64,000 nucleotides of DNA from Myxococcales bacterium. GTDB taxonomy: Bacteria > Myxococcota_A > Polyangia > Palsa-1104 > JAEUJZ01. The notes below the pieces were generated by a model that worked only from the letters and a program-made list of their open reading frames with translations, made no database searches and was not told the DNA's origin. Position 1 is the first letter of the stretch; each line of letters begins with the position of its first letter. Position numbers and translations under genes: made by a program. Location of the stretch: the NCBI GenBank assembly GCA_016794365.1, contig JAEUKB010000025.1, positions 116,693-180,692 on the forward strand, given 5' to 3'. Positions 13,295 through 56,689 of the stretch are shown here, piece after piece.

Positions 13295-13517
13295 ACGCTG
13301 GCTCGACGGCGCGTGAGTCGCTTGAGTCGCTGAAGCTTGGACCAAGTGATCGCGGAGCCGCGTGCTCAGCTTGCGCGGACGGAGCGTGGTGTCGTCCTTG
13401 TGAACCGCTCCGCTGATGAAGCGTCTCAGCTTGTCCAAACCACTGGGTTTTTCCGTCGGACCGTGAGCGCTCATCGGTGCCGTGAGATGCGCAGGTGAGT
13501 CCCGGTATAATGAAGGG

Positions 13518-14777
13518 ATGGCAACCTCTGATGAACCCGCGCTACAGACCCTGGCTGCGGCGCTGAGCGACGTTGGACTGATTCGCAAGAACAACGAAGA
13601 TTCCTTTTTGTGCGAGCCAGAGCTGGGCCTGTATGCCGTGGCGGACGGAATGGGCGGACACTCGGGCGGCGAGGTGGCATCCGCAATGGCGATGCAGTCG
13701 CTGCGCAGATCGCTTGCCGCTGTGCCGGATTCGGGCTTTTTGGCTGCACCGACGCTTGCGAACCGTCGGGTGATCTTGGACTTTTTGCGCAAAGCGGTCC
13801 TCGATGCCAACGCTGAAATCTATGCGCGGGGTCAGAGCGATCCGACGCTGCGCGGCATGGGCTGTACGCTCGATGTGGCGCTTGTGCGCGGTCGCAGCCT
13901 GTTTTTGGCCCACGTCGGAGACAGTCGCGTCTATGGACTGCTCGGCGGTACGCTCTATCAGCTCACCGAAGATCACACGTTTGGACAGACGCTTCTTTCC
14001 GGCGGTGCGATGACGTTGGAAGAAGTTCAGCGTCATCCGCAGCGGAACCTACTGATGCGGGCGCTCGGTGTGTATCCGAAGGTCGAGGTAGACACCGCGT
14101 ACCTGGACATTGCGCCGGGGGATGTGTTCTTGCTCTGTTCCGACGGAGTTCACGGGCTGATCGACGCGGAACAGATCACTTCAGCACTGGCCAAGCATGC
14201 GCAGTTTGCGCCGCGGACGCTGATCGATGCTGCGCTCGACGCTGGAGGTCGAGACAATGCCACTGCGGTGGTGCTGCAAGTCGCGTCCTGCTCGGTGTGT
14301 GAGCCGATTCGAGTGGGATCGGAGTCCGTTCGCTCGGTGATGGCGTCTGCCAGCCTGTTTGCGGACTTTAGCTCCGTTGAGCTGCTGCGGATTCAGCGCA
14401 TCGCGATTGGGCGACTGGTCAAGGCCGATGAGGTGGTCTTGCAGCTTGGCCAGCCGCTGATCGAAGTCTATCTGGTCATCGACGGTGCGATGTCTGTCTG
14501 GCGAGACGGAATACAAGTTGGCTGGTTTGGTCCCGGCGATCCGTTTGGCGCGTTCGCGCTGCATCAGAGCGACAGCGACGTGGTGGTCAAAGCCGATGCA
14601 CCGACGCGGCTGCTGGTGTTTCCGCTCGAACCGCTGCTGGAGCTGATCCAGAGCGACACCGCGATGGGCGTGAAGCTGGCACGGAACTCACTCAAGCGAG
14701 TCTGGCAGCGCTTTTTGCAGCTCTCGACGCAGCTGGCCCGCGCGCGCAACCGGACCGACAAGAGCCAGAGCACCTAG
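13518..14777 (+). CDS. PP2C-family Ser/Thr protein phosphatase fused to a C-terminal cyclic-nucleotide-binding (CAP effector) domain
   Basis: PP2C motifs (GLIRKNNEDSF; LYAVADGMGGHSGGEVAS; LCSDGVHGLI; DAGGRDNATAVV). The C-terminal 120 aa resemble a cNMP-binding domain (GQPLIEVYLVIDGAMSV...GPGDPFGAFAL). Start taken at the ATG at 13518 (GAAGGG RBS). Confidence 0.8.
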   Translation: MATSDEPALQTLAAALSDVGLIRKNNEDSFLCEPELGLYAVADGMGGHSGGEVASAMAMQSLRRSLAAVPDSGFLAAPTLANRRVILDFLRKAVLDANAEIYARGQSDPTLRGMGCTLDVALVRGRSLFLAHVGDSRVYGLLGGTLYQLTEDHTFGQTLLSGGAMTLEEVQRHPQRNLLMRALGVYPKVEVDTAYLDIAPGDVFLLCSDGVHGLIDAEQITSALAKHAQFAPRTLIDAALDAGGRDNATAVVLQVASCSVCEPIRVGSESVRSVMASASLFADFSSVELLRIQRIAIGRLVKADEVVLQLGQPLIEVYLVIDGAMSVWRDGIQVGWFGPGDPFGAFALHQSDSDVVVKADAPTRLLVFPLEPLLELIQSDTAMGVKLARNSLKRVWQRFLQLSTQLARARNRTDKSQST

Positions 14778-18071: not shown

Positions 18072-21000
18072 ATGCAGTACTTCCAAGAAGCTCGGCAAAG
18101 GGTTGTGCGACAGGGTCTGTGGCTTTCGCTGTGGGCGCTGTGGCTGCTGACGCTACCTACGGGGCTGTCGGGCTGTGGGCCGAAGCTGCAAGCACAAAGC
18201 TCGGTGGCCAGCGTCGAGGTGGTACGGACGCCGATCGAGCTAGATGGATCGCTTGGACGGCACGCGGTGGTCGGCGAAGAGCGGGCGATGGCGGGCCAGA
18301 AAATCCAAGTCGCCGAGCGCGCGCAGGCGCTGCTTCATCACGATGTCGGTGCGCGGATTCTGATCGACGGTGGCAGCGAAGTCCAAGTGACCGAGCAGGG
18401 TGTGCAGCTTTCAAAAGGTCGGCTGTGGGTGGACGCTCGCAGCGGTGGACGGATCGAGATCACGGTCGCTGATCAGACGCTGCTGTCTCAAGCGGCAGGC
18501 TTTGAAGTGACGAGCACGGCTGGTTCAGCTCGGCTGTCGGTGGTGCGCGGCGAAGTGGCGTATGTGGGAACGGGTCGCGGTGTGGTGCGCGCCGGGGAAC
18601 AGCTGTCGATGGGCGGTGGGGCTCCGAAGCTGGCTCCGGTGGCGCTGTGGGAAGACTGGACGGGCGGGCTGGCGTGGCCGGATCCGCGCGTGCAAGGTGG
18701 AGCGCCAGGGCTCGGGGAAGTCGGTGCGCGCAAGCCGGGCAGCCTGGGGGAAGCGCGCTTTCCGCTGTCGCTGCATCGACTGGAAGTGCGTGTGCGCATC
18801 GAAGACGATCTGGCGATTACCACGGTCGAAGAGACGTTTTTTAACCCGGCGGAATCGACGCTGGAAGGCATCTTCCGGGTGCGGCTGCCCGACGATGCGA
18901 TCTTGTCTCGCTTTGCGATTGATCGGCACGGACGCTACGTCGATGGCTACGTCAAAGAGCGCGAGACGGCGCGCCGTGACTACGAATCGAAGGTGTACGA
19001 AGGCTCGACGCACGATCCGGCGCTGCTCGAGTGGGAAGCGCCCGGTCAGTTCAAGGCGCGGCTGTATCCGCTGCCGCCGGGATCGACGCGCAAGGTCTTG
19101 TATCGGTACAGTCAGTGGCTGCCGTTTTCGGGTCCGGGTCACTCGCTGCGGACGTATCGCTTCCCGATGGGCGCAGCGGCGGGAGCGGGCGCACCGATGA
19201 TCCAAGAGCTGGACATCGAGGTGGACGCCAGTCGGGCCGAGGCGAAGGAAGTGCGCTCGGGTCTGGGATCGGTGCTGTCCGAAGATCGCAAGCGCGTGGT
19301 GATGCAGCGCACCGACTATCAGCCAAGCGCGGATCTGGTGGTCGAGCTGGTCGGGGCTGCGCGTCCAGAGGATGTCGCGCGGGTGTATCGGGTGTCGCAC
19401 GAAGATCCACCGAGGCCGGGTGGACACAGCGGCAAGCCGGAAGATGACTATGTGCTGATTCGGACGCTGCCTGCGCCGGTTCCTTCGTCGAGTGAGCGTG
19501 TCCCGATCGATCTGGCGCTGCTGGTCGATGTGTCGGCAGCCACCGACGCGACACACCTGGCGATGGCCAAGACGCTGGTGGAGTCGGTGCTGCGACGGCT
19601 GGGGCCGGACGATCGGGTGGTGCTGCTCGGGGCGGACTTGGATGCGCACGCGGTGGGGGCCAAAAAGACCGGCAAGCGAGAAGCGGTGGCGGCTCCGACG
19701 TGGCAGACGCTCGGGCCGGAGACAACGAATCAGCTCTTGGAGCAGCTCGGTCGGACAACCACAGGTGGTGCGACGGATCTGGGCAAGACGCTCAGCCAAG
19801 CGGCGGCGATGCTCGATCCGGCGCGGATTTCTGCGGTGCTGTACGTCGGTGACGGCAAGCCGACGGTCGGTGAGCTGTCCTTGCCTGCGCTGCGTGAGCG
19901 ACTGGCGAGCCTGCCGCAGCCGCTGCGTCTGTATGCCGTCGGAATTGGCGATGAAGCAAACCTAGAGCTTCTGTCGGGACTGGCGGCGGTGAGCGCAGGA
20001 CAGGCATTCCGCGTCGGAGATCGCAGCGCAGCGGCAGAGACAGCGCTGCAAGTGGTGACGCATGTCAGTCGTCCGGCGGTCAGCAAGCTGAAGATCGATG
20101 TCGGTAGCTCGCTCGATCGGGTCTACCCTCGTGAGACGGTGGCAGTGCGCGCGGGTGAGCCGCTGTTTGTGCTGGCGCGACTGAAGAAGCGACTGCCGTC
20201 GAAGATCACCGTCGAAGGCGTGCAGCTCGGACAGCCGTTTCATCGCTCGTATCGACTGGAAGGTCACGGCATCGACAACACGTCGGATCTGCGGCTGCGC
20301 TGGTCGCAGGCTCGGCTGCATCAGCTCCTTGAGAGCGGTGCTACCGTCGAAGAAGTGGCAGAGCTGGGCGTTCGTCAGAACCTGATCACGCCGTATACGT
20401 CGTACTACGTGCCGAGCGAGGAAGAGGTGTCGCTGCTGGAGCGTGCGATTCCCGAGGTTCGCGCCGCTGGCTGTAGCAGTCGCTCGCCGATGTCGTTTAG
20501 CAAAAATGAGTCGGCTCCGGCGAGTGCGTCATCGCCCGTGGTGGTGTCGGCAGACAATGCGCCACCCGCGCCGCCGGTCGAAGGCAAGATGGGAAGAGCC
20601 GATCGTCGTCGTGCCAAAGACGACAGCGAAGAAATGAGAGAAGGCGCAGAGTCTCCGAAGCTGGCGCTGGAAGCGGCAAAGCCGACGGCTCCGAGTGCAT
20701 CGGCGGCGGCCATGCCGTCTCGGGACGAAGCGTATGCCGAAGCGCCAGCGCCCGTGGAAGCGCCCGCGAAAAAAGCCAAGCGTGCTCTCGCCAAAGAAAA
20801 AGCGGCGTTTGATGGCGATGATTCTCCGAGTGACTCGGGCGGAAGCGCGTTCGGTCTGGTCGGCGCAGGCAAAGGCGGCGGCGGAACGGGCGAAGGCACG
20901 ATTGGACTTGGCGCGATCGGCACCATCGGTCATGGCTCGGGCCGTGGCTATGGCAGCTACGGTGACAAGACTGTCTCGCCGAAGGGACGACGCAACGTCA

Positions 21001-22745
21001 GCCCGGACGTAGCGCTCGGGGTGGCGGAAGTGCGCGGCTCGCTCGACAAAGAGATCATTCGTCGCATCATCCGTCGCCACATCAACGAGGTGAAGTTTTG
21101 CCAAGAGCGTGAGCTTGTGCGCGGCGCGGCCAGCGTCGGACGGCTGCTCGTGCAGTTTACCATCAGCGTCGATGGCTCGGTGATTGCGAGCATTGTGCAA
21201 AGCTCGACGGTGGGCAATCCGGTGCTAGAGCAGTGCGTCGCGTCGGCAGTTCGTCGCTGGGAATTTCCCAAGCCGCGTGGTGGCGTGGTGGTTGTGACGT
21301 ATCCGTTTACCTTCAGGGGCGACGGCGTGAGCAGCGGCTATCAGGAAGTGGCGATTCCGTCGGTGGAAGTCTCGACGCCGGATGTGACGGTGGTGGTCGG
21401 GATTGTCACGCATCGGCCCAAAGGCTGCTCGGCAGCGTCGATGCAGCCGCTGGATGAGCGACGACAGCTTTGGAAAGAGCGCCTGTCGGGCAGCGTGCGC
21501 AGAGCGATGGAAGTGCTGCAAGACGCTGAGCATGGCTGCGAGGTCCGTCGCTGGTCCGAGCGTCGGGAGCTGCTCAAGCTGATGCTACGCAACGTCGGTG
21601 GCCCGCGCGGCATGGTCGAGCTGTACAAGAACTTGTCCGAGGAGCCCGATGATCAGGAATACCTGCGTCACTCGATCCTTGGAGAAGTGCGCAATCCGCG
21701 TGATCTGCGAGTGGTGTACGACGGGCTGGGTCTGGGCGACGAAGAGCGCGCGCTGCTTTCGCAAGAAGTGGTGGCCAAGGCCAAGTCGCTGCCGGACAAG
21801 CTGGCTCGGCTGACGGATCTGCTGGCGAAGTGGCCCGACGATCTGCGGCTGCGGATCTTGCGAATGGAGACGGAAGAATCGCTCGGTGAAGCGGAAGCGG
21901 CGCGTCGGACCGCAGAAGAGATTCGCATCGATCCGTATGCGGATGCTCAGGCGCGGACGGCGGTTGGTGAGCTGCTCGTGCGGCTCGGGGATGATGTCGG
22001 TGCGCGACGGGCGTTTTCAGAGATCGTCGAGTTTGCGCCGCAAGATCCACTGGCGCGGCGACGGCTGGGCGATCTGTATCGGGCGCACGGGCTGTTCGAT
22101 GAAGCGTACCGTCAGTACGAGACGCTGCTTCAGCTTCAGCCGGGGGACAACTCGGTGCTGATCCTGCTGGCAGCGGCGGCGGCGGGCGCGGGCAAGGTCG
22201 AAGAAGCGCTGGGCCTGGAAAAGCGCGTGGTCGGCGATGCAGAGCCGGGCAGCGAGAGCGGTCTGGCCAAGGTGGCGCTGCTGTGGTCCAGCCTGCGACT
22301 GCTGGAGCTGCGTGATCAGGCGCGGACGCTCAAAGGCAAGGACACGACGGAAGAGCTGGCGCTTTTGAACCTGCGGGCACGACAGAGCGGCATCGAGGGT
22401 CTGTATCGTCCGGTTCGGGTGTTTCTGTCGTGGGCTCATCCGGAAGCGGACCTGGATCTGCGGGTGGCGGCTCCGGGTGAGTCGGCGGGTCCAGCGATGG
22501 ACTTGGCGCCGCAGTTTGGTCTGCTCGGCTGGCACAGCGACAAGGCTGCGTCGTCGCGCGGAGAATACGTGATTGAAGTGCGTCGGCAAGACCGCGCTCG
22601 GGCGATTGGCTACGACGTGGTGTTGGAAGTGGTGGTCGCCGAAGGTCAGAGCGACGAGCGGCTGCTCAGTAGCAAGTTCAGGATGGCGGGCGAGCTGGAC
22701 TCGCGACGCTTCCTGCTTCGAGACGGACGGCTTTTGCCCCAGTAA
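18072..22745 (+). CDS. giant multidomain lipoprotein: FecR-like domain, VIT domain, vWA domain, low-complexity Ala/Pro/Lys region, TonB_C-like domain, C-terminal TPR region
   Basis: 1557 aa. Lipoprotein signal (LTLPTGLSGC). FecR-like block (ILIDGGSEVQV...SKGRLWVDA...AGFEVTS). VIT block (FRVRLPDDAILSRFAIDRHGRYVDGYVKERETARRDYE...ARLYPLPPGSTRKV). vWA block (IDLALLVDVSAATD...VLYVGDGKPTVGE). TonB_C-like block (IIRRIIRRHINEVKFCQERE...GRLLVQFTISVDGSV...AVRRWEFPKP). TPR-like helical repeats at the C-terminus. Confidence 0.75.
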   Translation: MQYFQEARQRVVRQGLWLSLWALWLLTLPTGLSGCGPKLQAQSSVASVEVVRTPIELDGSLGRHAVVGEERAMAGQKIQVAERAQALLHHDVGARILIDGGSEVQVTEQGVQLSKGRLWVDARSGGRIEITVADQTLLSQAAGFEVTSTAGSARLSVVRGEVAYVGTGRGVVRAGEQLSMGGGAPKLAPVALWEDWTGGLAWPDPRVQGGAPGLGEVGARKPGSLGEARFPLSLHRLEVRVRIEDDLAITTVEETFFNPAESTLEGIFRVRLPDDAILSRFAIDRHGRYVDGYVKERETARRDYESKVYEGSTHDPALLEWEAPGQFKARLYPLPPGSTRKVLYRYSQWLPFSGPGHSLRTYRFPMGAAAGAGAPMIQELDIEVDASRAEAKEVRSGLGSVLSEDRKRVVMQRTDYQPSADLVVELVGAARPEDVARVYRVSHEDPPRPGGHSGKPEDDYVLIRTLPAPVPSSSERVPIDLALLVDVSAATDATHLAMAKTLVESVLRRLGPDDRVVLLGADLDAHAVGAKKTGKREAVAAPTWQTLGPETTNQLLEQLGRTTTGGATDLGKTLSQAAAMLDPARISAVLYVGDGKPTVGELSLPALRERLASLPQPLRLYAVGIGDEANLELLSGLAAVSAGQAFRVGDRSAAAETALQVVTHVSRPAVSKLKIDVGSSLDRVYPRETVAVRAGEPLFVLARLKKRLPSKITVEGVQLGQPFHRSYRLEGHGIDNTSDLRLRWSQARLHQLLESGATVEEVAELGVRQNLITPYTSYYVPSEEEVSLLERAIPEVRAAGCSSRSPMSFSKNESAPASASSPVVVSADNAPPAPPVEGKMGRADRRRAKDDSEEMREGAESPKLALEAAKPTAPSASAAAMPSRDEAYAEAPAPVEAPAKKAKRALAKEKAAFDGDDSPSDSGGSAFGLVGAGKGGGGTGEGTIGLGAIGTIGHGSGRGYGSYGDKTVSPKGRRNVSPDVALGVAEVRGSLDKEIIRRIIRRHINEVKFCQERELVRGAASVGRLLVQFTISVDGSVIASIVQSSTVGNPVLEQCVASAVRRWEFPKPRGGVVVVTYPFTFRGDGVSSGYQEVAIPSVEVSTPDVTVVVGIVTHRPKGCSAASMQPLDERRQLWKERLSGSVRRAMEVLQDAEHGCEVRRWSERRELLKLMLRNVGGPRGMVELYKNLSEEPDDQEYLRHSILGEVRNPRDLRVVYDGLGLGDEERALLSQEVVAKAKSLPDKLARLTDLLAKWPDDLRLRILRMETEESLGEAEAARRTAEEIRIDPYADAQARTAVGELLVRLGDDVGARRAFSEIVEFAPQDPLARRRLGDLYRAHGLFDEAYRQYETLLQLQPGDNSVLILLAAAAAGAGKVEEALGLEKRVVGDAEPGSESGLAKVALLWSSLRLLELRDQARTLKGKDTTEELALLNLRARQSGIEGLYRPVRVFLSWAHPEADLDLRVAAPGESAGPAMDLAPQFGLLGWHSDKAASSRGEYVIEVRRQDRARAIGYDVVLEVVVAEGQSDERLLSSKFRMAGELDSRRFLLRDGRLLPQ

Positions 22746-22754
22746 GAGGTCGCC

Positions 22755-25700
22755 ATGAAGAGCGTTGGGCAGTTTCGCAACAAACAAGTCGGCGGCAAAT
22801 ACATCCTTGGCTGGACGCTGTCGGCGTCGCTGTGGATGACGGGCTGTCACAAGCCGCCGTCGCAAGAACCAACGGTTGCTTCGGTGGAAGCCAGCCGCGA
22901 TGGCGCGACGATCACGACGGGCAAGACCCAGCTTCCGATTCAGCGCAGTCAGCGCTTGGTTGCGGGCAGCGTGGTGACGACGCCGCCGGGTGTTCGCTCG
23001 TCGCTGTATCTCGATGCGGGGGCGTGGGTGCTGCTCGATCAGGGCAGCGTGCTCAAGGTGCTCGACAAAGGCATCGAGGTGCAGAGCGGTCGCGCCTGGA
23101 TCGATGCGCGCGTCGGAACCGATGTCCCGGTGATGGCAGCGGGAATTGCTTTGACGGCGCAGCGGGCGGGCCTGGCGGTGACGATGACCGAGGGTGGCGC
23201 CAAGATCTACTGCGCGAGCGGTCAGGTTGGCTGGAAAGGCGCGGGCAAGTCGGGACGGCTGGAGTCCGGCTTGACGCTGCTTGTCTCGGGCGGAGACGCG
23301 AAACAGACGGCGCAGGCGCTGTGGGATGACTTTACGCTGGGACTGGCGGAACCGGGACCGCTGCGGGCGCTGGAACCGGCGGGCGTGGGACAGCTAACGG
23401 CGCGACCTGCGACGGGAGTTGGTACGGCGCGGACGCCGCTGATTGTGCGTGCGCACGACGTGAGCGTGTCGATTGAAGGCGACATGGCGACGACGACGGT
23501 GGAGCAGACGTTCTTTAACCCGCGCTCCGAGTACCTAGAAGGTCTGTACACGGTGCGTCTGCCGGAAGCTGCGATCTTGGAACACTTCGCGGTGGCCGAT
23601 GGGGACGCTGCGCCGCGTCGTGGCTCGGTCCTGCCGATGGATCGTCAGGGCAGCGGCGTGTCGAGCTTTTCCGCGAACCTGGAGTGGGCGGGCTCCGGTC
23701 GCTATCGCGGTCTGATTCGCAACATTGCGCCGGGTAAGGTCAGGAAGGTGGTGCTGCGCTACCGTGAGTGGCTGCCGCACATTCCCTACGCTGACGCCGT
23801 GCGCCGTACCTATGTCTACCCGATGGGACAGAGCGCGCAGATGCAAGCGGGCTCGGTGTCGAACTTGGGAGAGTTTTCGCTGTCGGTGGACGTGGCGCAG
23901 GCGCAGGCAGCGTCGCTTCAGGCCGGGCTCGGTGCGCAGGTCGAAGGCTCGATGGTGACGCTGCGACGCAGTGACTTCAAGCCGACGGCGGACTTTGTGC
24001 TCGATCTGATGGACGGCAAAGAGCGCATCAAAGATCGGCTGGTGGCGTTCCGAGGAGAAGCCGTCGAGGATCAGCGCTATCTGCTGGTGCAGCCGACGCC
24101 AGCGGCGGGTAAGCCAGCCAAGGGTCTTGATGTGGTGCTGCTCGTCGATGTGTCGGCGGGAACGGATGAAGCACGACTGAGCCTGGGCAAGAGCGCGGCG
24201 CAAGCACTGCTCAAGCGACTGACGCCCGAGGATCGGGTCGCGGTGGTGGCGACTTCTCTCGGGGCGGCGACGCTGGGCAGTGAAGCGATGGCCCCGGCGA
24301 CCAAAGAGCGAATCGAGCAGCTCGATGCCCAGCTTGCGAAGCAGACTCCGGGCGGAGCGACGAACCTTCAGCAGGCGTTTCTGCGCGCGGTCGAGCTTCT
24401 GCCGCGTGGGAAAGGCGCGGTGATCTACATTGGCGACGGGCGTCCGACGGTTGGTGCGCTGACCCCGAATGAGCTAAGAGCGCAGCTTCAGCAGCTTGGG
24501 GATCTGCCTCGGTTCTTTGCGGCGGCGGTGGGCAGCGACGCGAATGTGCCGCTGCTGGAGTCGCTGTGTCACTCGGGAACTCGCTCGGGCGTGGTGCGGA
24601 TTGAAGACGCGCCGGATGCGTCGCGGGCGGCGCTGCACCTATTGGAACGGGTGGCGCAGCCGAGCCTTTTGGGCGTCAAGGTAGAGCTGGGCGAAGGCGC
24701 GGATGTGGTCTATCCCGACGAGCCCGTGACGATCGAAAGTGGCGATTCGCTGACGGTGGTGGCCAGGCTGCGCGCCGATCGTCCTCTGCCATCCAAGCTG
24801 GTGCTGCGCGGGCTGCGCGACGGACAGCCGTTTGTCGAGCAGCGCGATCTGACGGTGCGCTCGATCGAAGATGGCGGGGACTTGGCTCGTCGCTGGGCGC
24901 TGTATCGGATGCAAGGTCTGTTGGAGCGTGCGTCGGGCAAAGAAGCGATCTTGGACATCGGCAAGCGCTTTCAGGTGGTGACGCCGTGGACTGCGATCGT
25001 CGTCGCTCCGTCGGGTGGGGAAACGTATCGTCCCTTCGTGGGCGAGCTAGAGGCTGGACAGTTTGTGCCTCCGTCGCTGCGTGGACAGGCTCCACAGGAC
25101 TCGGCGATCGTGCTGGAATCGGGCGTTTCGACGCAGAGCATGCGTCCGGTGAGCATCGGTGAGATGTATGTGCGAGCGCTCAAGTCGCAGAGCAGTGCGG
25201 CGCGGCTGTGTTACGAGCGACGGGCGGCGGGAAATCCGGGCCTGTCGGGTCGCGTCGAGCTGAAGCTGAAGATCGGAATCGATGGGCTGCCCAAGGATGT
25301 CAAGGTCGCGTCTTCGACGCTGCGCAACAAAGAGATCGACGACTGCATCGAGCGCGCGCTGCTGGCGGTGAAGCTGCCGGTGTCTCCCGACGGGAAACCG
25401 CATGATGTGGACTACGCGCTACAGCTCAATCAAAAAGAGCATGACGACGGACCGCAGCGCTGTAGTGCGGCGTCGCGGGCGTATCTGCAAGTGCGCCGAT
25501 CGCTGTGGCGCGAGCGTCTGTCGAGTCATCCCGGCGTCGAGGGTGCGATGACGGTGCTGCGCGAAGCCGAAGCGCGCTGTGAGCTGAAGACCTGGCTGGA
25601 TCGGCGAGCGCTCGTCGATTTGATGCGTGTTCACGTCGGTGGAACCGCGCAGCAGGTCGATCTGTTCCATCGCTTCGACGACAGTGAGTACGCGCAGGAA

Positions 25701-26840
25701 GTTCAGTCGCATCTGCGTCGCGAGATCTTGCGAGCGGTGCGCACGGAAGCGGACATTCGGGCGGCGCAGAGCGGGCTGGCTCTCGACGGTGGAGTCGATG
25801 AAGCGCTGCTGACGCAAGAGCTGAAAAAGACCAAAGGCGTCGCCGAGCAGCTCGCGGTGATTCGTCGCTTTTTGGCGCTGCTACCGGACTCGCTGTCGCT
25901 GAAGCTGAAGCTGCTGGCGCTGCTGGAAGAAGCGAGCGCCGAAAAAGGACTGGCAGCGACGGCCAAGCAAGCGCTGTTTGGGGAAGCGAACCGGCTCATC
26001 GAGTCGCTGCGCGTCGATCCAGGGGCCGATGCTGCGGTTCGTCAGTCCGTCGGTGAGTATCTGATCCGTCGCGGCGAAGGGGCCGAAGGCGCGCGGGCGC
26101 TGTCCGAGATTGTCGAGTTTGCTCCGTTCGATCCGTGGGGACGGCGACGGCTCGGGGATCTGTATCGCGCCCATGGCTTTTTCGACGCTGCGTATCGGGA
26201 ATATCAAGGGCTGAGCTGGCTTTTGCCGCAAGATGACAGCGTGCTGCTTTTGCTGGCGGATGCGGCGGCGGGCGTGGGTCGTACCGACGAAGCGCTGCGA
26301 CTGACCAGTCGGGTGGCGGAAGCGGTGGGCGCGCAGAAGTCGCAGAAAGGGGCTCCGGCGTGGGCGCGCGCGCTGTATGCGGTGCGGTGGGCGCGGCTCT
26401 GCGACGAAGCCCGACGAAAAGGCGATCAGAACCTGCTCGGCCAGCTTGGCGCACGCGGACGTAGCGACGGAATTTCCGGCTACGCAGGCCAGATGCTGGT
26501 GGCGGTGACGTGGTCGCATCCCGACGCGAAGCTTCAGCTCCAGCTGGTTCCACCGGGCAAAGGCAGTGAGCCGCAGCGGGCCAGCATCGCGGGCGGAGAC
26601 GTCGGCATCGAAGCGCAGCGCTACGACAAGGCGCAGTCCGGCGAGTGGCAGCTTCGCGTCATCAAGCCAAGCGTGGCGCTCGGGGCGGGCGAATACAAAG
26701 GCGAGCTGACGGTGCTGCTGTTTGCCGGAACCAAAGAAGAGACGATCCTGCGGCAGCCGATCGCCGTGAGCGCCGGTTTTTCGTCGGTGAAAGAGTTTTC
26801 GCTGCGCGGCAACGTGCTGTCGCCAATTCCCAGCAAGTAG
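22755..26840 (+). CDS. giant multidomain lipoprotein, paralogue of the upstream gene (FecR-like, VIT, vWA, TonB_C-like, TPR)
   Basis: 1361 aa with the same domain order. Lipoprotein signal (LWMTGC). Near-identical blocks shared with the upstream gene (EQTFFNPRSEYLEGLYTVRLPEAAILEHFAV; LVDVSAGTDEARL; EIVEFAPFDPWGRRRLGDLYRAHGFFDAAYREYQGL versus EIVEFAPQDPLARRRLGDLYRAHGLFDEAYRQYETL). Starts 10 bp after the upstream stop. Confidence 0.75.
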   Translation: MKSVGQFRNKQVGGKYILGWTLSASLWMTGCHKPPSQEPTVASVEASRDGATITTGKTQLPIQRSQRLVAGSVVTTPPGVRSSLYLDAGAWVLLDQGSVLKVLDKGIEVQSGRAWIDARVGTDVPVMAAGIALTAQRAGLAVTMTEGGAKIYCASGQVGWKGAGKSGRLESGLTLLVSGGDAKQTAQALWDDFTLGLAEPGPLRALEPAGVGQLTARPATGVGTARTPLIVRAHDVSVSIEGDMATTTVEQTFFNPRSEYLEGLYTVRLPEAAILEHFAVADGDAAPRRGSVLPMDRQGSGVSSFSANLEWAGSGRYRGLIRNIAPGKVRKVVLRYREWLPHIPYADAVRRTYVYPMGQSAQMQAGSVSNLGEFSLSVDVAQAQAASLQAGLGAQVEGSMVTLRRSDFKPTADFVLDLMDGKERIKDRLVAFRGEAVEDQRYLLVQPTPAAGKPAKGLDVVLLVDVSAGTDEARLSLGKSAAQALLKRLTPEDRVAVVATSLGAATLGSEAMAPATKERIEQLDAQLAKQTPGGATNLQQAFLRAVELLPRGKGAVIYIGDGRPTVGALTPNELRAQLQQLGDLPRFFAAAVGSDANVPLLESLCHSGTRSGVVRIEDAPDASRAALHLLERVAQPSLLGVKVELGEGADVVYPDEPVTIESGDSLTVVARLRADRPLPSKLVLRGLRDGQPFVEQRDLTVRSIEDGGDLARRWALYRMQGLLERASGKEAILDIGKRFQVVTPWTAIVVAPSGGETYRPFVGELEAGQFVPPSLRGQAPQDSAIVLESGVSTQSMRPVSIGEMYVRALKSQSSAARLCYERRAAGNPGLSGRVELKLKIGIDGLPKDVKVASSTLRNKEIDDCIERALLAVKLPVSPDGKPHDVDYALQLNQKEHDDGPQRCSAASRAYLQVRRSLWRERLSSHPGVEGAMTVLREAEARCELKTWLDRRALVDLMRVHVGGTAQQVDLFHRFDDSEYAQEVQSHLRREILRAVRTEADIRAAQSGLALDGGVDEALLTQELKKTKGVAEQLAVIRRFLALLPDSLSLKLKLLALLEEASAEKGLAATAKQALFGEANRLIESLRVDPGADAAVRQSVGEYLIRRGEGAEGARALSEIVEFAPFDPWGRRRLGDLYRAHGFFDAAYREYQGLSWLLPQDDSVLLLLADAAAGVGRTDEALRLTSRVAEAVGAQKSQKGAPAWARALYAVRWARLCDEARRKGDQNLLGQLGARGRSDGISGYAGQMLVAVTWSHPDAKLQLQLVPPGKGSEPQRASIAGGDVGIEAQRYDKAQSGEWQLRVIKPSVALGAGEYKGELTVLLFAGTKEETILRQPIAVSAGFSSVKEFSLRGNVLSPIPSK

Positions 26841-26888
26841 CGCGCAGATAGCGCTCGTCTTTTCGGGCGTGTCGCTCGGCGATATTCT

Positions 26889-28352
26889 GTGCGGATGCCA
26901 AACTTCAAAGTCCCGGTCCTTTGTGTGCTGGCCCTCGTCGGCTGCACGAGTGAAGGACTTGATACCCTGGTTCCGCACTTTGATCCGCCCAGCTCGACGA
27001 CGCTTCCGTCGGTTGGGTCGCTGGTGCATGTCATCAACCTGGATGCCGAGCCGACGATTTGCTATTCCACCGACGGAACGAATCCCGAGTGGAACGGTGG
27101 AAGCTGCGCCAAAAAGCTCGATGAGAGCCGCGCGATCGCCGTGCCCGCGTGTGGCTTCAACCTGATCCGCATCGCTTGGCCGACGGGCAGCGACGAAGCA
27201 AACTACAAGGTAGAAAGCGAAGCCTGTCAGTCGAGCTGCGAGCCGGTCGTGCCGTGGCCCAACGGTGAGCTGGCCCAGGCCTACGCACGCTGGACCGACG
27301 AGGTAAAGTGCAAGCTCAACAACTGCCAAAATCCGTCGAGCACCGGCAACTGGTCCACAAGCTGTGACACGGGACAAGTGAGCTGGAACGTCAGCCTCAA
27401 CGGACTGCGCGCGATCAGCACGTTTACCTATGATTCCTGTGCGCACACCGTCACCATCGACGTCAGCGAGGGCGGCAAGCTGGTTCCGCGCAAGTTCACC
27501 TTGATCGTCACCGGCAAGCTGATTCAAGACACGGACTTCGACGGCAGCGGCAACGAAGGCGGCAACGTCACCATCGCGGGCGACTTCACCGGCAAGATCA
27601 ACTCGCGAATTGTCCTCGACAGCAAGCAGCGCAAGGGTGGAACCATCGACGCGGGCTGCTTAAGCGATCCGCTCGACGGCAAGCAGTGTGCGCCGGGCGG
27701 AGCGACGATTGCGTACAACTTCCCCGACTTTGGCTGTCGCGGCGGAATCTGTCCGGTCGCAGCATCGGGAACCTGCAAGCAGCCTGACACGGACAGCGAC
27801 GGTGTGCCCGATGACAAAGACAACTGTCCGATGCTGGCCAATACCGATCAGCTTGATGTCGATCGCGACGGTGTGGGCGACGAGTGTGACAGCGAGCCTG
27901 CGTTCGCGCTCTTGCGCTTCAAGGTGGGAAGTCGCTGTCTGACGCTGGGCACCAAAAAGCAGGTTCATTCGACCAGCACCTGCGAGCCGACGGACCCCAA
28001 GCAGCAGTGGCAGATGTTTCCGTCGGGAAATGCCTATGGATTTCGCAATCTCTCGACGGGAGAGTGTCTGAGCCAGAGCGGTGTGCTGGCGGGACCGTGG
28101 ACGGTGGTGACGGCTCCGTGTGATGGCACCGATAAGCAGCGCTGGAAGCTAGAGACCTATAACCAAGGCGGCACCGACGCGAAATATCCGCTGCGTATGC
28201 ACAACGTCGCCGAAAACTTCTGCATCTACACCGATCTGACCGGGCTGGTGTACGGGACGGCGCTCAACTGCGATCTGGCTGGAACAGAGTCCAATCGCAA
28301 AGTTGGTGTCTACCTGGGCGGAGCGTTTGACAAGGCTCCGTTCGTTCCTTGA
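26889..28352 (+). CDS. secreted lipoprotein with thrombospondin type 3 (Ca-binding) repeats and C-terminal ricin-B/QxW lectin-like domain
   Basis: Signal with Cys (VLALVGC). TSP3 motifs (DTDSDGVPDDKDNCPMLANTDQLDVDRDGVGDECD). C-terminal QxW-type repeats (KQQWQMFP, KQRWKLETY) on a beta-trefoil-like segment. Confidence 0.65.
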   Translation: MRMPNFKVPVLCVLALVGCTSEGLDTLVPHFDPPSSTTLPSVGSLVHVINLDAEPTICYSTDGTNPEWNGGSCAKKLDESRAIAVPACGFNLIRIAWPTGSDEANYKVESEACQSSCEPVVPWPNGELAQAYARWTDEVKCKLNNCQNPSSTGNWSTSCDTGQVSWNVSLNGLRAISTFTYDSCAHTVTIDVSEGGKLVPRKFTLIVTGKLIQDTDFDGSGNEGGNVTIAGDFTGKINSRIVLDSKQRKGGTIDAGCLSDPLDGKQCAPGGATIAYNFPDFGCRGGICPVAASGTCKQPDTDSDGVPDDKDNCPMLANTDQLDVDRDGVGDECDSEPAFALLRFKVGSRCLTLGTKKQVHSTSTCEPTDPKQQWQMFPSGNAYGFRNLSTGECLSQSGVLAGPWTVVTAPCDGTDKQRWKLETYNQGGTDAKYPLRMHNVAENFCIYTDLTGLVYGTALNCDLAGTESNRKVGVYLGGAFDKAPFVP

Positions 28353-28354
28353 TC

Positions 28355-28500
28355 CCCAATAGGAATCGGTTAGGAATCGATTGGGAATCGGTTGGGAATC
28401 GGTTAGGAATCGATTAGGAATCGATTAGGAATCGATTAGGAATCGGTTGGGAATCGGTTGGGAATTGCAAGAGGAATCGGTTAGGAATCGATTCCTCTGA
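28355..28500. repeat. intergenic tandem array of about 13 copies of a 10-bp unit (T/G)(A/G)GGAATCG(A/G)T, ending in a perfect 12-bp palindrome GGAATCGATTCC
   Basis: Direct reading: ataggaatcggttaggaatcgattgggaatcggttgggaatcggttaggaatcgattaggaatcgattaggaatcgattaggaatcggttgggaatcggttgggaattgcaagaggaatcggttaggaatcgattcctc. It lies between two convergent stop codons. Confidence 0.9.
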
Positions 28501-28508
28501 GGAGGACG

Positions 28509-30050
28509 CTACGCTTTGAAGGCGCTGGCGTCGGGCAGTCCGCTTCCGGCCAGATCGACTCCCATGGCGGTGAGGACACCCGAGAAGATGTCCGGCTCAT
28601 TGGGCGTGAGCTTGCCAACCTGCGGAGCGCCCGTGCGCGCATCAAAGCCGTAGGTCAGGGTGGTCAGTGGATCGATGCCGCCCAAGATGGTGTTGCCCTT
28701 GACCATCGGAGACAACAGGACAAAGCCGTTGTTCAGATCATGTCCGCTTCCGAACGTGGTGGCATTGTCGGGACGATTGCGGGTCCGGCCAAAGTCAGTG
28801 GCTACGTAGATCATGGTGCGATCCCATAGGCTCTCTCCCGTCGCTGTATCAAACGGCTCGGACTTGAGCAGCGTGATCAGCTTATCGACGGTTCCCATGA
28901 TCCGGCTCCACATAAACGCCTGGCCACTGCGGTGATCGTTGTGACTAAAGTCAAACGCGAGCGGCGGATTGTAAAGTCCTGCGCCACCGCCGAGCTTGAC
29001 GTTAAAGTCTGGACCGATCGTGATCGCAGAGGACACCCGATATTTGATGAGCAGGAATGCCAGCGCAGCTTGTCCTTGGAACGGATCGTTGAAGAAGTCA
29101 GGCAGGGCCAAGCGAACGCGCGCACCATCGGGAGAAGACGCAAGTCCATACTGAGTCAAGGGAACCTGCGGCGGCATGTCAGGAAGCACGTTCAGCTTGG
29201 TGATCAGATCCTGGGCTTCCAGCGTCGAGCTGGCTGCGCTCTGGGACAGCCAGCGCTGCATCGACACCGCATCGGAAAACGTCTGACCGAAGACAGACTG
29301 CGCGTGTAGCTCCTCTCGGGCTTTGCGAGCGAGGGACACCACGTCTTTGGTGGGGGCTCCTGTGATGCCGCGTGTACCATCCAGACCCAGCGGCCACAGC
29401 GACGGATTGGTCACGGTTTCTGGATACATTGCAGCCGGAAGGGATTCGTCTACACCGCGCTCTGTGTAGCCACCAAAGGCCATGTTGACGTTGGGAATCG
29501 GCATTCCTTGGCCAAACTCCAGCGCGACACATTCCTGAAGCGTGCGTCCTTTCCATGCGTTATTGCCAGTGATCGCACGCTTCTGCGCAATGACGTGGTT
29601 TACCGACGTACCGACCGAGGTCGCAACCAACATGTCATCCGCGTACTTTTTGACAAAGGCGAGCTGATCGGTGTTGACCGGAATCGGAATGCTCCCAATC
29701 TTGGATGAAGAGTGCCGGACTGCGCGAAACGGACTGCCCGCAACGCTCTGGACAGCGGTGTCTGGGAATGCGTTCAGTCGGATCGCGTTGGTCTTGGCTT
29801 CTGACTCCCGAACCGCGAGCATGCTGTCGATGATGCTGGCTCCTCCGGCTGCGGCAATCACCACCAAGAACTTGGGCTTGGTGCTCAGTGGATCGATGCG
29901 CGTGCCGAGCTTTTCGGCAGACTGCGGAGTCTCCAGTGACTGACGACATCCGATCAGGAAAGGAGACAGCGAAGTCGATCCTGCGGCCAAGAGTCCGAGC
30001 GCAGAGAGTGCCTCGCGGCGGGACAGTCTTCCGTTGTTTCGTAGTGACAT
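28509..30050 (-). CDS. DUF1501-family protein with twin-arginine (Tat) signal (sulfatase/phosphatase-like fold family, function unknown)
   Basis: Tat-type signal MSLRNNGRLSRREALSALGLLAAGS; length and sequence character (DFGRTRN..., GSGHD) as in DUF1501 proteins, which pair with DUF1800 proteins. Start taken at the Met preceding the RR motif. Confidence 0.6.
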   Translation of the reverse strand: MSLRNNGRLSRREALSALGLLAAGSTSLSPFLIGCRQSLETPQSAEKLGTRIDPLSTKPKFLVVIAAAGGASIIDSMLAVRESEAKTNAIRLNAFPDTAVQSVAGSPFRAVRHSSSKIGSIPIPVNTDQLAFVKKYADDMLVATSVGTSVNHVIAQKRAITGNNAWKGRTLQECVALEFGQGMPIPNVNMAFGGYTERGVDESLPAAMYPETVTNPSLWPLGLDGTRGITGAPTKDVVSLARKAREELHAQSVFGQTFSDAVSMQRWLSQSAASSTLEAQDLITKLNVLPDMPPQVPLTQYGLASSPDGARVRLALPDFFNDPFQGQAALAFLLIKYRVSSAITIGPDFNVKLGGGAGLYNPPLAFDFSHNDHRSGQAFMWSRIMGTVDKLITLLKSEPFDTATGESLWDRTMIYVATDFGRTRNRPDNATTFGSGHDLNNGFVLLSPMVKGNTILGGIDPLTTLTYGFDARTGAPQVGKLTPNEPDIFSGVLTAMGVDLAGSGLPDASAFKA

Positions 30051-30064
30051 CTGCTCTACTCCCT

Positions 30065-30706
30065 TTAGTAAAAGACCGACTCTGCGGAAGACAGGATTGC
30101 GAAACAGACAGACTGCATCCACGCGCGAGCGGGGGTCGCGTTGCCTGCTCCTTCGATGTCTTTGGCCAGACGAACGTAGCGCTCTAGCTCGTTGCGATAG
30201 GGATTGCGCAGAAACACCCGCTGCGTCATAAGTCCAATCACCCCACGGACTTCTGGACCGTCACTGTTTGCCAGCTTGTTTCCATCGAGCGGAATGCCGC
30301 GAAAGATCACCGCAGCAGATGGATTGTCTAGATCTGTGCTGACCCGCTGCGTACAAGCCGCCCATGCGACGCGCTCGACGACAAGCGGAGTGGTTGTGGC
30401 CGTCACCCCTGGTGTTTCATACAGACCTGCACCGTAAGGATCGACGCCTCCCAGCGCGACGTTATGAACCACAGAAGTACACGGATACATTCCCAGCTCC
30501 AGACAGACAGACTCTGGACGCAGCTCAAGTGCCGTCGCAAAGTCCGTGCTGAGACGCTCTGGACCTTTGAAGCGAAGGTTGCCGCGCGCAGACTTCGCAA
30601 CCGGAGAGGTCGGAAGCTCAAGGACATCGGGATCCGGTGGCGCTTGGGCTGGATCAGTACACGCTACGCACAGCGCAGCACAAAAGAGAAGTTTGTTAAG
30701 GCGCAC
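30065..30706 (-). CDS. small lipoprotein of unknown function, middle gene of the DUF1800-like/DUF1501 operon
   Basis: Signal MRLNKLLFCAALCVAC (lipobox). Overlaps the stop of the upstream gene and the start region of DUF1501. Confidence 0.5.
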   Translation of the reverse strand: MRLNKLLFCAALCVACTDPAQAPPDPDVLELPTSPVAKSARGNLRFKGPERLSTDFATALELRPESVCLELGMYPCTSVVHNVALGGVDPYGAGLYETPGVTATTTPLVVERVAWAACTQRVSTDLDNPSAAVIFRGIPLDGNKLANSDGPEVRGVIGLMTQRVFLRNPYRNELERYVRLAKDIEGAGNATPARAWMQSVCFAILSSAESVFY

Positions 30707-32114
30707 CGTAGGCCTCCGTCTTCACGATGTCATGCAGTAGTTTCTGGACGCGGTACTGATTGGCGGACTTGAAGCGCTGCCAGGTCGCCACAAACTCTGC
30801 GTTTTCTTCTGGCGTTGGCGCGTGTCCAACCAGCAGCTTCCAGTAGTCTTTTGTCGTCGAGATTGCGAACGCATCGCTGTCCGCTGCAACCTGAGCCCAT
30901 TCCCGCAGGTTGTTCACCGGCTTGCCAAAGATCACACCCTTTTCAGGAGTCTGTGCAATGCGCGGCGCTACGTTTGGGAAGAACGTCTCAAGCCGGTTGG
31001 GAATGTACTGGGTTTCATACATCGCCGATGAGATTCCGTTGTAGTTGCGGAACGGATAGGTCAGCGGATCCAGCGTGGCATGACATGCTGCACACTCTTT
31101 GGCAGTGACTCCTTTGGCGTCGTAATCTTGGGGTTCATTTGCGACGCTGTAGAGTCCTTCTTGCTTCGCAATATCAAGCCCCAGATAGGCGCGATACATC
31201 TGCGATGCTGCGTTGCGCGGAATGGCCGTGAACATGATGAAGTCCGTCAGCGACCATGCGGTGGTCATGTTGCCAGCACGATGCGCGAGATCGACTTTTT
31301 GGGAAGCCAGACTGGCTACTTTGCTGTAGCGCGTCGGATTGACATCGCGACGCACAAAGAAGTCAGCAGTGAGGACTTCGCGGGCATCGTGATCATCGGT
31401 CTGCGTATACGAAAACAGGTTGTAGTCATCGTAGTAGTCAGCCAGCGGAACGCCGCCTTTGTCTTCCCCATCCTTGAGCGATCCGACCGGACGAATCTTG
31501 GGATGCGCGACCTTCCAGAGCTGTCCGTTTTTGCCGCGCCAAAACTCTGTCTGTGCGCAGCGATCGATCTCTGTATCGATGAAGGCTCGACGCTCATCAT
31601 CACTCGCTTTGGCCGCAAAGGCAGTGACATCCGCAAAGGAGGGAGAGACTCCGCAGAGGTCGCGCAGCACCTTTTTGTAGGCATGACGAAGATCGTAGCG
31701 GCACACCGCATACTGTGGATTTTCACCACCTTGACAGGCACTACTTCCCGGCTTGCTGCTGGGATCAGAGGGCTGTGTACCGCGCTGAATTTCTTCTAGG
31801 TTGGATGCTCCGTCGCCATCTGCATCTTGGCTTTCGACCGCAGCCAGCGCGCTTGGGAGTGCCGCAGAGAAGTCCGTATCCGATAGGGGGCGCGGCATTC
31901 CGAGCGCCAAGCTCTTTTCCACCATCGCGCCAAAGCTGTTTCGCTGCGGTGGGGCGATGTGGCAGTAGGAACATGAGGGCTGTTTGCCGATACACTCCGG
32001 TGATGTGGGGTATTTTTGACAGAACACTCCGCCTGCGGGCGGCTTGGCTTGCGCTTGTCCGGCCAAGCCCAAGACCGTCCCGAGGAGTGTCCACTGCAAC
32101 GTGTATGTTTTCAC
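30696..32114 (-). CDS. secreted DUF1800-like protein carrying an N-terminal CxxCH cytochrome-c-type heme-binding motif
   Basis: Signal peptide (LLGTVLGLAGQAQA); CSYCH motif at residues about 48-52. About 470 aa, directly upstream of a DUF1501 gene, the usual DUF1800/DUF1501 pairing. Confidence 0.5.
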   Translation of the reverse strand: MKTYTLQWTLLGTVLGLAGQAQAKPPAGGVFCQKYPTSPECIGKQPSCSYCHIAPPQRNSFGAMVEKSLALGMPRPLSDTDFSAALPSALAAVESQDADGDGASNLEEIQRGTQPSDPSSKPGSSACQGGENPQYAVCRYDLRHAYKKVLRDLCGVSPSFADVTAFAAKASDDERRAFIDTEIDRCAQTEFWRGKNGQLWKVAHPKIRPVGSLKDGEDKGGVPLADYYDDYNLFSYTQTDDHDAREVLTADFFVRRDVNPTRYSKVASLASQKVDLAHRAGNMTTAWSLTDFIMFTAIPRNAASQMYRAYLGLDIAKQEGLYSVANEPQDYDAKGVTAKECAACHATLDPLTYPFRNYNGISSAMYETQYIPNRLETFFPNVAPRIAQTPEKGVIFGKPVNNLREWAQVAADSDAFAISTTKDYWKLLVGHAPTPEENAEFVATWQRFKSANQYRVQKLLHDIVKTEAYGAP

Positions 32115-33845: not shown

Positions 33846-33947
33846 TTGGAAACGGAGTTGCGCAGGCTCGCATGCAGACTGCGCTTGGCATTCTCCCCGA
33901 CTTCACCCCGGCGATTGTGCGCGCTGCTACGCGACGGACTCCGGAAC

Positions 33948-36538: not shown

Positions 36539-36708
36539 GTACGTAAACTCCGAACCAGGCCAATGAAAGTGGGCGCATCCTAGCAGCCGTCTAGATGTGT
36601 GTAAACGCGCTCGTGCCGGGGAAATTACGACCAGCGCTTGCGGCTGAACTGGGCGAAATCCGGTGAAAATGGGCCAAATACGGCCAAAGCAGGCGAGCTG
36701 GGCGGGCT

Positions 36709-56688: not shown

Positions 56689-56689
56689 C

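Follow-up and report, generated by a model that had tools for sequence, protein, structure and literature searches.

A conserved pair of large predicted lipoproteins in Polyangia joins an ITIH-like head to a TonB-like domain and a TPR-like solenoid

Introduction

Two adjacent genes in a 64,000-nucleotide stretch of contig JAEUKB010000025.1 (Myxococcales bacterium, assembly GCA_016794365.1, positions 116,693 to 180,692; hereafter the window) encode very large proteins, P1 and P2, whose domains are known from quite different systems. A first-pass annotation of this DNA had described both as lipoproteins in which a FecR-like, a VIT, a vWA, a TonB C-terminal-like (TonB_C) and a tetratricopeptide repeat (TPR) domain follow each other in the same order, and had considered an envelope-spanning sensing or adhesion machine or a motility-associated complex. 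The locus raises the question of what such a combination is for: sensing, energy transduction, adhesion or something else.

We report that P1 and P2 consist of known modules in a new order and represent a widespread, Polyangia-centered and uncharacterized gene pair. Their N-terminal halves resemble the heavy chains of the ITIH family, and a TonB-like domain of the type found in the gliding proteins GltG and GltJ precedes a C-terminal TPR-like solenoid. Based on these features and on the conservation of the pair, we tentatively favor a passive envelope scaffold or adhesion complex over the alternatives, which are weighed below together with the evidence that bears on them.

Results

Two adjacent genes encode paralogues that are related over nearly their whole length

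According to the list of open reading frames (ORFs), P1 is encoded at window positions 18072–22745 and P2 at 22755–26840, both on the + strand, with 1557 and 1361 amino acids (aa), respectively. The tandem arrangement given in the first-pass annotation is borne out, and each gene has its own ribosome-binding site (Table 1), but the P1 stop codon (22743–22745) and the P2 ATG (22755) are separated by 9 nt and not by 10 bp. This spacing and the overlapping ribosome-binding site suggest coupled translation, and we propose that P1 and P2 are encoded by a self-contained operon with coupled translation. A protein identical to P1, with the same neighbors, occurs in a public metagenome assembly, and both genes are therefore real. 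Full-length homologues of P1 range from 86–91% down to 38% identity. The number of hairpins followed by a T-rich tail in this region, one of which is a possible terminator downstream of P2 (Table 1), was not above chance in the pattern scan.

Between positions 18001 and 26000, the G+C content is 0.63–0.655 and the GC skew 0.15–0.18, compared with 0.57–0.61 and ∼0.05 in the flanks. Both values likely reflect the Gly/Ala/Arg-rich composition of the proteins and not a foreign origin, which is disfavored because the pair is vertically conserved.

The overall identity of P1 and P2 is 34%. BLASTP aligned aa 24–780 (34% identity, E 4e-111) and aa 994–1556 (35% identity, E 5e-66), and a sliding-window profile revealed a background of ∼30% identity with three peaks: the VIT core (aa 228–277, 57–63%), aa 1119–1158 (57–60%) and aa 1299–1388 (up to 80%). 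The chief difference is a low-complexity insert of ∼160 aa that is present only in P1 (aa 794–971). High identity had initially been assigned only to discrete blocks, namely the VIT core, the DxSxS strand of the vWA domain and a C-terminal IVEFAP motif. The VIT core and the C-terminal block, with its invariant SEIVEFAP.D…RRRLGDLYRAHG motif, stand, but their discreteness was slightly overstated, as the similarity is full-length. The metal-site strand of the vWA domain reaches only about 50% identity, and the block at aa 1119–1158 had been missed.

Five domains are recognized, two of them at the family level

Both proteins were searched as single sequences with Pfam and NCBIfam models at their curated cut-offs. 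Three models exceeded the cut-off in both: Pfam VIT (81.1 bits, E 8e-23, in P1 and 34.6 bits in P2; cut-off 26.5), Pfam VWA_3 (33.9 and 27.9 bits; cut-off 27) and NCBIfam NF033768, the AgmX/PglI C-terminal domain (91.5 and 52.3 bits; cut-off 40). Two further models did so in P1 only, namely TIGR01352 for the TonB C-terminus (30.9 and 13.4 bits; cut-off 27.1) and Pfam TPR_14 (35.4 and 12.9 bits; cut-off 23.5). TPR_19 and TPR_2 also reach their cut-offs in P1, while TPR_19 stays below it in P2 (15.3 bits); by repeat models above the cut-off or by a TPR fold, both qualify as TPR proteins. Pfam TonB_C remained below its cut-off of 24.6 in both proteins (20.5 and 15.6 bits), and Pfam FecR (cut-off 24) gave 18.9–23.3 bits in P1 and no match in P2.

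The family as a whole gives a clearer picture. Of 22 N-terminal domains, 19 match Pfam FecR at E up to 0.01 (best 1.5e-8), and the profile built from all 22 finds the periplasmic domain of PupR in the PDB (6ovk_R, E 3.1e-5). A profile of 71 full-length members, run against the PDB, matched ITIH4 (2.7e-23), ITIH1 (2.4e-13) and a consensus TPR (5.5e-8), followed by the PARP4 VIT domain (5e-4), PupR (5.7e-4) and TonB C-terminal domains (∼3e-3). The five domains and their order are thus supported by model scores and family profiles, with the qualification that the FecR and TonB_C assignments, which stay below the Pfam cut-offs in single sequences, rely on the family level. No curated Pfam or NCBIfam model spans the whole architecture or the C-terminal module of solenoid and β-sandwich, and the PADLOC models for anti-phage defense gave no matches at E up to 0.01.

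The gene pair is conserved across Polyangia and arose by a single old duplication

A homology search retrieved more than 500 relatives. The best 120 of these, which served as our homologue set, are almost all 1350–1700 aa long and originate from myxobacterial genomes and metagenomes. Their database names are generic only: “AgmX/PglI C-terminal domain-containing protein”, “VIT domain-containing protein” or “TonB family protein”. In 185,579 genomes, each representing one species, tblastn confirmed 458 relatives; the best 80 of them, on which the locus analyses are based, all have myxobacterial labels, for example Sandaracinaceae, Polyangiaceae, Polyangia or “Myxococcales”, or are unclassified metagenome-assembled genomes (MAGs) with broader labels such as Deltaproteobacteria. 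In a library of 1.84 billion proteins, the C-terminal module forms 134 clusters (50% identity) at E up to 1e-30, and in complete proteins it is always the C-terminal end of a protein of 1300–1600 aa. Candidate stand-alone modules were rejected: the shorter hits start in the middle of a domain, lack a signal peptide and are contig-end fragments.

Loci with enough downstream DNA yielded 39 non-redundant pairs, including one of 1604 and 1379 aa in the complete genome of Sandaracinus amylolyticus DSM 53668 (CP011125, about 10,224,273–10,233,226) and one of 1457 and 1353 aa in a Polyangia MAG. The gene order is fixed across Sandaracinaceae, Polyangiaceae and other Polyangia. In an unrooted bipartition test on a distance tree, the 39 first genes, together with P1, separated perfectly from the 39 second genes, together with P2. 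Because this split is perfect, we conclude that the pair goes back to a single old duplication followed by a fixed gene order, which agrees with the old duplication with conserved cores proposed at the outset. Lone genes with clear downstream sequence (loci L020, L033, L036, L038, L042, L048, L052 and L075) all fall into the first-gene clade. A lone gene and a full pair can occur in the same genome, as for L052 and L077 in one MAG or for L020 and L047, and first-type proteins may act alone or share a second-type partner.

Both proteins are predicted lipoproteins, and the FecR-like domain probably stands apart from σ factor signaling

The N-termini of P1 and P2 each show a positively charged region, a hydrophobic region and a lipobox Cys. 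This Cys is kept in 38 of 39 first genes and 35 of 39 second genes and is followed by Gly in most homologues. P1 and P2 would accordingly be Sec-exported and lipidated at the N-terminal Cys; the family-wide conservation of this residue upholds their description as lipoproteins. P1 contains only six cysteines. Two of them are Cys35 of the lipobox and Cys801; the other four make up one pair each in the TonB-like domain (1010/1055) and the solenoid (1119/1156), and the solenoid pair is kept or lost jointly across homologues. The paired cysteines fit disulfides in an oxidizing compartment and hence an exported protein.

The FecR-like domain of P1 was modeled by AlphaFold2 entirely as β-strands, with a predicted local distance difference test (pLDDT) score around 90. 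Judging by the family-level matches, FecR and PupR share with it the β-solenoid “FecR” domain, which could point to a surface-signaling sensor of the FecR/PupR type that senses an outer-membrane receptor and controls an extracytoplasmic function (ECF) σ factor. The match to PupR, however, is limited to this solenoid (residues 9–127 of 219 in chain 6ovk_R), after which P1 does not continue with the rest of the PupR periplasmic part but with the VIT domain, where the Pfam match begins at aa 235. Neither the sequences nor the Pfam scan revealed an anti-σ domain, a membrane helix or an STN-like part in P1 or P2, the N-terminus carries a lipobox in place of a helix, and no gene for an ECF σ factor or a TonB-dependent receptor or transducer lies beside the pair in the window or in the lineages examined. 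The sensing role suggested by the FecR module is thereby largely refuted, and we regard it as highly improbable.

The N-terminal half resembles ITIH heavy chains and carries a modified metal site

The AlphaFold2 model of the N-terminal half of P1 (aa 36–800) has a pLDDT of 88.3 and a predicted template modeling score (pTM) of 0.88. Foldseek aligned it with human ITIH1 (6fpy) over 608 columns (E 3.9e-29, target-normalized TM-score 0.61) at a sequence identity of only 13–14%, and the family profile aligns with residues 271–610 of ITIH4. As in ITIH-type proteins, VIT is followed by vWA, both above the Pfam cut-offs in P1 and P2, and as in the heavy-chain fold, the vWA domain of the P1 model is set in a hybrid domain on a large β-sandwich. 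The order and fold of VIT, hybrid domain, vWA and C-terminal sandwich are common to P1, ITIH1 and ITIH4 (6fpy, 9c4f) over ∼600 residues, as is a conserved Asp/Ser/Thr/Asp metal site. In contrast to ITIH, P1 and P2 are bacterial and predicted to be lipid-anchored, with a FecR-like domain in front of the head and TonB-like, TPR and sandwich domains behind it. Nothing points to the glycosaminoglycan attachment of ITIH in P1 or P2; the matched region ends before the part of ITIH concerned with C-terminal cleavage and ester linkage.

The metal site itself differs from the canonical DxSxS…T…D pattern that had been noted for the vWA strand. The strand reads D-V-S-A-A/G-T-D, and across the family the motif is D-[VIL]-S-[AG]-x-T-D: positions D486, S488, T568 (Thr or Ser) and D594 are invariant in all 39 first and all 39 second genes, whereas the second Ser (position 490) of ITIH is replaced by Ala or Gly; no more than 8 of the 39 second genes have Ser there. 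In ITIH1, dimers depend on the metal site, and ligands are bound through it (PMC7170535). By analogy, the altered but strictly conserved site in both paralogues suggests ITIH1-like chemistry, in which the metal coordination would be completed by a partner's acidic side chain.

Two further alternatives start from this head. Myxococcus flips the vWA lipoprotein CglB to the cell surface, and P1 and P2, being lipoproteins by sequence, could likewise be flipped after lipidation and form a surface-exposed, integrin-like adhesin or matrix-organizing pair, the heads of which bind substratum, matrix or prey. Their head is both ITIH-like and integrin-β-like, and eukaryotic ITIH chains stabilize the extracellular matrix (PMC7170535). 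In other bacteria, VIT-vWA families are targeted by sortases or exosortases, and the models of these families find the VIT and vWA core of P1 and P2 in partial matches of 84–97 bits (TIGR03788, TIGR04477); lectin and thrombospondin-repeat genes also lie nearby in the window. These sorted families differ from P1 and P2 in taxon and extra domains, though, and their models score far below cut-off (96.6 and 83.7 bits for TIGR03788, cut-off 551.65). P1 and P2 contain no MYXO-CTERM, LPXTG or PEP-CTERM/exosortase tag, their C-terminus being a β-sandwich, and the lectin neighbor is not conserved. FecR-type and TonB-C-type domains are not known outside the periplasm. We therefore consider a surface adhesin unlikely.

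The second alternative, a periplasmic protease trap or inhibitor, is drawn by analogy with ITIH4 and the giant bacterial α2-macroglobulin lipoproteins. ITIH4, the best PDB match by sequence, is described as a protease inhibitor that acts once it has been cleaved (PMC7793589), and the products of our pair are giant lipoproteins as well. But neither a conserved bait region nor a thioester is evident in P1 or P2, the low-complexity linker, a conceivable bait, is missing from P2 and varies among homologues, and the comparison of flanking ORFs linked no protease or peptidoglycan-synthase gene to the pair. A protease trap appears very unlikely.

The C-terminal half combines a GltG-type TonB-like domain with a TPR-like solenoid

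The TonB-like domain of P1 was modeled as β-α-α-β-β-α-β with pLDDT above 90. The TPR-like solenoid behind it would comprise about ten repeats and bear its invariant motif in a groove. P1 aa 925–1084 aligns with the end of the GltG model (NF033760, positions 491–648, among its last 160; 155 bits). P1 and P2 share with GltG (AgmX) and GltJ (PglI), which act in the gliding of Myxococcus xanthus, the AgmX/PglI-type domain with two cysteines, and P1 also the Gly-rich stretch that precedes this domain in GltG. Unlike P1 and P2, which are predicted lipoproteins, GltG and GltJ reside in the inner membrane, where they have a membrane helix and, on the cytoplasmic side, FHA or ZnR-GYF domains; the Pfam scan found no FHA match in P1 or P2, and a lipobox signal peptide takes the place of the helix that contacts the AglR motor. 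The domain is terminal in GltG and GltJ but internal in P1 and P2, where it directly precedes the TPR solenoid. Against a cut-off of 650 bits, the full-length GltG model scores 155 in P1 and 33.7 in P2, and the GltJ model reaches 26 of the required 450.

The TonB-like domain is also unevenly kept. All 39 second genes have it, compared with only 17 of the 39 first genes and 63 of the 120 listed homologues. The C-terminal RRRLGD motif, by comparison, is altered in some second-gene products, with R1330 kept in 26 of 39.

The first-pass annotation had seen in this domain a TonB/AgmX-type energy-transducer end. TonB-family transducers carry a motor-binding membrane anchor, the position of which is occupied by the lipobox in P1 and P2; because the lipid anchor replaces the motor-binding helix, P1 and P2 cannot themselves draw on the proton gradient. 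Together with the absence of conserved motor genes beside the pair and the loss of the domain from 22 of 39 first genes, this speaks against a transducer. P1 and P2 could still be accessories of a motor-driven machine, either of the Agl-Glt gliding or of a TonB/Tol-like type, with the GltG-like tail plugging into a TPR or outer-membrane platform that is energized by a separate inner-membrane motor. Besides NF033768 above its cut-off in both proteins and the GltG alignment of P1, two published proposals fit such a role: AlphaFold models place the TonB-like domains of GltG and GltJ on the TPR lipoprotein GltD (PMC11761067), and vWA proteins have been proposed to act as force transducers (PMC12204202). 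The latter, which include Bat-type vWA/TPR proteins, resemble P1 and P2 as envelope vWA proteins with TPR elements but differ by a TonB/TolA- or TolR-like helix anchor, tolQ/tolR-like neighbors and the lack of VIT (PMC12204202). An accessory role is disfavored by the lipobox, which leaves no membrane helix and hence no motor-binding motif, by the many first genes without the domain, by full-length GltG and GltJ scores far below cut-off and by the genomic context: no exbBD, tolQR, aglRQS or glt gene is conserved as a neighbor in the window and the related loci. We judge it improbable.

A further feature became apparent in the homologues. Right after the ITIH-like unit, 58 of 120 homologues of the first-gene clade contain an internal hydrophobic stretch with a lipobox-like Cys (for example GMQRRVQPSSIAAAVLMAPLSLAG-C and IALGIALGPLALTG-C; consensus about ALGPL[AS][IL][AT]G-C). 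In homologues P0044–P0100 it is located at about aa 780–830. In some homologues a Met and a run of positive charges are also part of it, and it thus resembles a complete type-II signal peptide in the middle of the protein. No second-gene product has such a segment, and P1 of the window keeps only RAAG-C801 (20472–20474) without the hydrophobic stretch, in a low-complexity linker that is variable among homologues. The internal lipobox is possibly a scar left when two lipoprotein genes fused long ago, and such a fusion would in itself suggest that the N- and C-terminal halves work together; a site at which the protein is cut into two lipoproteins and a membrane-dipping loop are also possible.

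Table 1. Sequence features of P1 and P2 and their positions in the window
Feature	Protein	Residues	Window positions	Strand	Remarks
Ribosome-binding site GGTAGGAAGG	P1		18058–18067	+	4 nt upstream of the ATG; read from the sequence
Type-II signal peptide and lipobox (…LLTLPTGLSG-C35)	P1		18072–18176	+	Predicted; Cys invariant in a 12-sequence alignment
FecR-like all-β domain	P1	∼40–195	18189–18656	+	Ends in the near-invariant LW(D/E)DWTGGL motif
VIT	P1	229–345	18756–19106	+	Pfam VIT; within the region superposing on ITIH1
vWA	P1	480–655	19509–20036	+	VWA_3; near-complete metal site D486, S488, (A490), T568, D594
Post-vWA β-sandwich and helices	P1	656–790	20037–20441	+	Equivalent of the ITIH hybrid and C-terminal parts
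Ala/Pro/Ser/Gly-rich linker	P1	791–985	20442–21026	+	P1-specific, absent from P2; starts at Cys801; ends in GltG-like Gly-rich stretch
TonB-C-like domain, AgmX/PglI type	P1	991–1082	21042–21317	+	NF033768; Cys1010/Cys1055 pair
TPR-like solenoid, ∼20 helices	P1	∼1119–1440	21426–22391	+	Invariant Cys1119/Cys1156; invariant SEIVEFAP.D…RRRLGDLYRAHG motif
C-terminal nine-strand β-sandwich	P1	1448–1557	22413–22742	+	AlphaFold2, pLDDT above 90; no Pfam match
Ribosome-binding site AAGAGG	P2		22744–22749	+	Overlaps the P1 stop codon; read from the sequence
Signal peptide and lipobox (…SASLWMTG-C31)	P2		22755–22847	+	Predicted; aligned with the invariant Cys
FecR-like domain	P2		22872–23339	+	By homology to P1 (BLASTP alignment); no direct Pfam FecR match on full-length P2
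VIT (aa 225–345) through vWA (aa 459–614)	P2	225–614	23427–24596	+	Motifs DVSAGTD, GGATN, YIGDG
TonB-C-like domain, AgmX/PglI type	P2	807–891	25173–25427	+	NF033768, 52.3 bits
TPR-like solenoid and terminal β-sandwich	P2	900–1361	25452–26837	+	35% identity to the modeled P1 region
Hairpin and T-rich tail, possible terminator			26839–26855	+	Directly after the P2 stop; pattern scan

The genomic neighborhood of the pair differs among lineages

We compared the flanking ORFs of the 80 loci all against all, using a reduced ORF set. The flanking genes differ among lineages, and the only recurrent neighbors are an acyl-CoA ligase (6 loci, closest relatives) and Ser/Thr kinases. The latter are generally abundant in myxobacterial genomes, to which we attribute their recurrence near the pair. 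A conserved third gene was rejected, as flanking families are shared by close relatives only. A functional tie to the upstream aspartate kinase and acyl-CoA ligase, for which co-expression had been considered, is unlikely given that this linkage is found only in the closest relatives, and no ExbBD gene, the other candidate for co-expression, is conserved beside the pair.

The aspartate kinase and acyl-CoA ligase genes are preceded by a gene (13482–14777) whose product is a fusion of a PP2C phosphatase with a cyclic-nucleotide-binding domain. The gene at 26889–28352 starts 48 nt downstream of P2, and its product of 487 aa combines a ricin-type lectin domain with a thrombospondin type-3 repeat; the gene may be co-transcribed with P2 here but is not conserved beside the pair elsewhere. 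A phage-type integrase gene (32685–33845) lies within a stretch of lower G+C content (28001–34000, 0.57–0.58) between the pair and a gene for an OmpA/thrombospondin-repeat protein (34610–36880) with a PEGA-domain gene (36709–37569), and this stretch possibly marks the border of a mobile element.

Further downstream, positions 38453–57925 hold a type VI secretion gene cluster with TssK/VasE (38453–39793), DotU (39865–40773), an IcmF-like protein (43398–47501), ImpA (47508–48629), the sheath protein VipB (49250–50716), TssF (51807–53615), TssG (53570–54658) and VgrG (54655–56688). The cluster also includes genes for a TPR protein (40849–41928) and a periplasmic-binding-protein-like product (41928–43373), and VgrG is followed by a MORN-repeat protein (56690–57925). 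A 1309-aa ORF downstream of the cluster (59274–63203) contains repeated MopE-type putative metal-binding motifs and could encode a secreted effector or a surface protein. At the other end of the window, two adjacent full-length AcrB-type RND transporter genes (407–6732; 1050 and 1058 aa) overlap by 4 nt. They are followed by a gene for EutB, the large subunit of ethanolamine ammonia-lyase (6740–8140), and by an ORF with collagen triple-helix repeats (8118–9323), with no obvious EutC; either this ORF was called in the wrong frame, or EutC, the small subunit, may be absent.

Discussion

The comparisons above place P1 and P2 outside the families from which their parts are known. Because defining features of each are lacking, they are not members of the GltG, GltJ, TonB, FecR/PupR or sortase-target VIT-vWA families. 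Full-text literature searches found no paper on this architecture, and the models for GltG, GltJ and the sortase targets all score far below cut-off, in line with the initial impression that it is not a named or characterized family. By analogy, P1 and P2 would work most like ITIH/integrin-β heads joined to a plug of the GltG/GltJ type.

Of the readings considered, we lean toward the pair being a passive, non-enzymatic scaffold or adhesion complex of the envelope that faces the periplasm, and we hold this view tentatively. P1 and P2 would assemble into a heteromer, for which the pattern of conservation argues: the split into two clades, the fixed gene order, the asymmetric decay of the TonB-like domain and the changes in the RRRLGD motif. 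The complex would most likely face the periplasm from the outer membrane. Its vWA heads may capture acidic side chains of partners, or of each other, through a bound metal as in ITIH1. The TonB-like domain may dock by strand pairing on a TPR solenoid, either that of its own chain or that of the other protein, or on a protein of the outer membrane, comparable to what was modeled for GltG/GltJ and GltD. The complex itself would be neither a σ factor regulator nor a proton-driven transducer. The adhesion-machine and motility-associated roles initially suggested for the pair are possible.

Several observations weigh against such a scaffold. Some Polyangia genomes also hold a lone first-type gene without a second gene downstream. 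The replacement of the second metal-site Ser by Ala or Gly means that metal binding is not assured, and generic TPR matches are uninformative about the ligand. The internal signal-peptide-like segment in 58 of 120 first-type homologues hints at a processing step or topology that a simple scaffold leaves unexplained. Finally, the sequence is compatible with a location at the face of the inner membrane, at the face of the outer membrane or on the cell surface.

A bolder proposal, to which we give little credence at present, regards the pair as a bacterial counterpart of an integrin-like heterodimer, the first protein of which may in many lineages also be a polyprotein. Two lipid-anchored heads would then each be permanently joined to a TonB-like plug of the GltG type and to a TPR platform resembling GltD, and a ligand in the outer membrane or matrix would be mechanically coupled to the periplasmic machinery. 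As for the polyprotein, LspA would cut at the internal type-II signal peptide and release two separate lipoproteins. If true, this coupling would represent a type of module not yet described.

The envelope machines that myxobacteria build for gliding, predation and matrix assembly are complex, and their known parts come mostly from Myxococcus. The pair described here would add a large, strictly conserved and uncharacterized envelope module of Polyangia, the sister class. This module joins the TonB-like plug of the gliding proteins GltG and GltJ to an ITIH/integrin-β head, a type otherwise familiar mainly from the matrix and complement biology of animals. If a metal-dependent heteromer of P1 and P2 indeed bridges envelope layers, it would add to the examples of bacteria that use integrin-like adhesion logic and would also provide a handle on the motor-free use of TonB-like domains.

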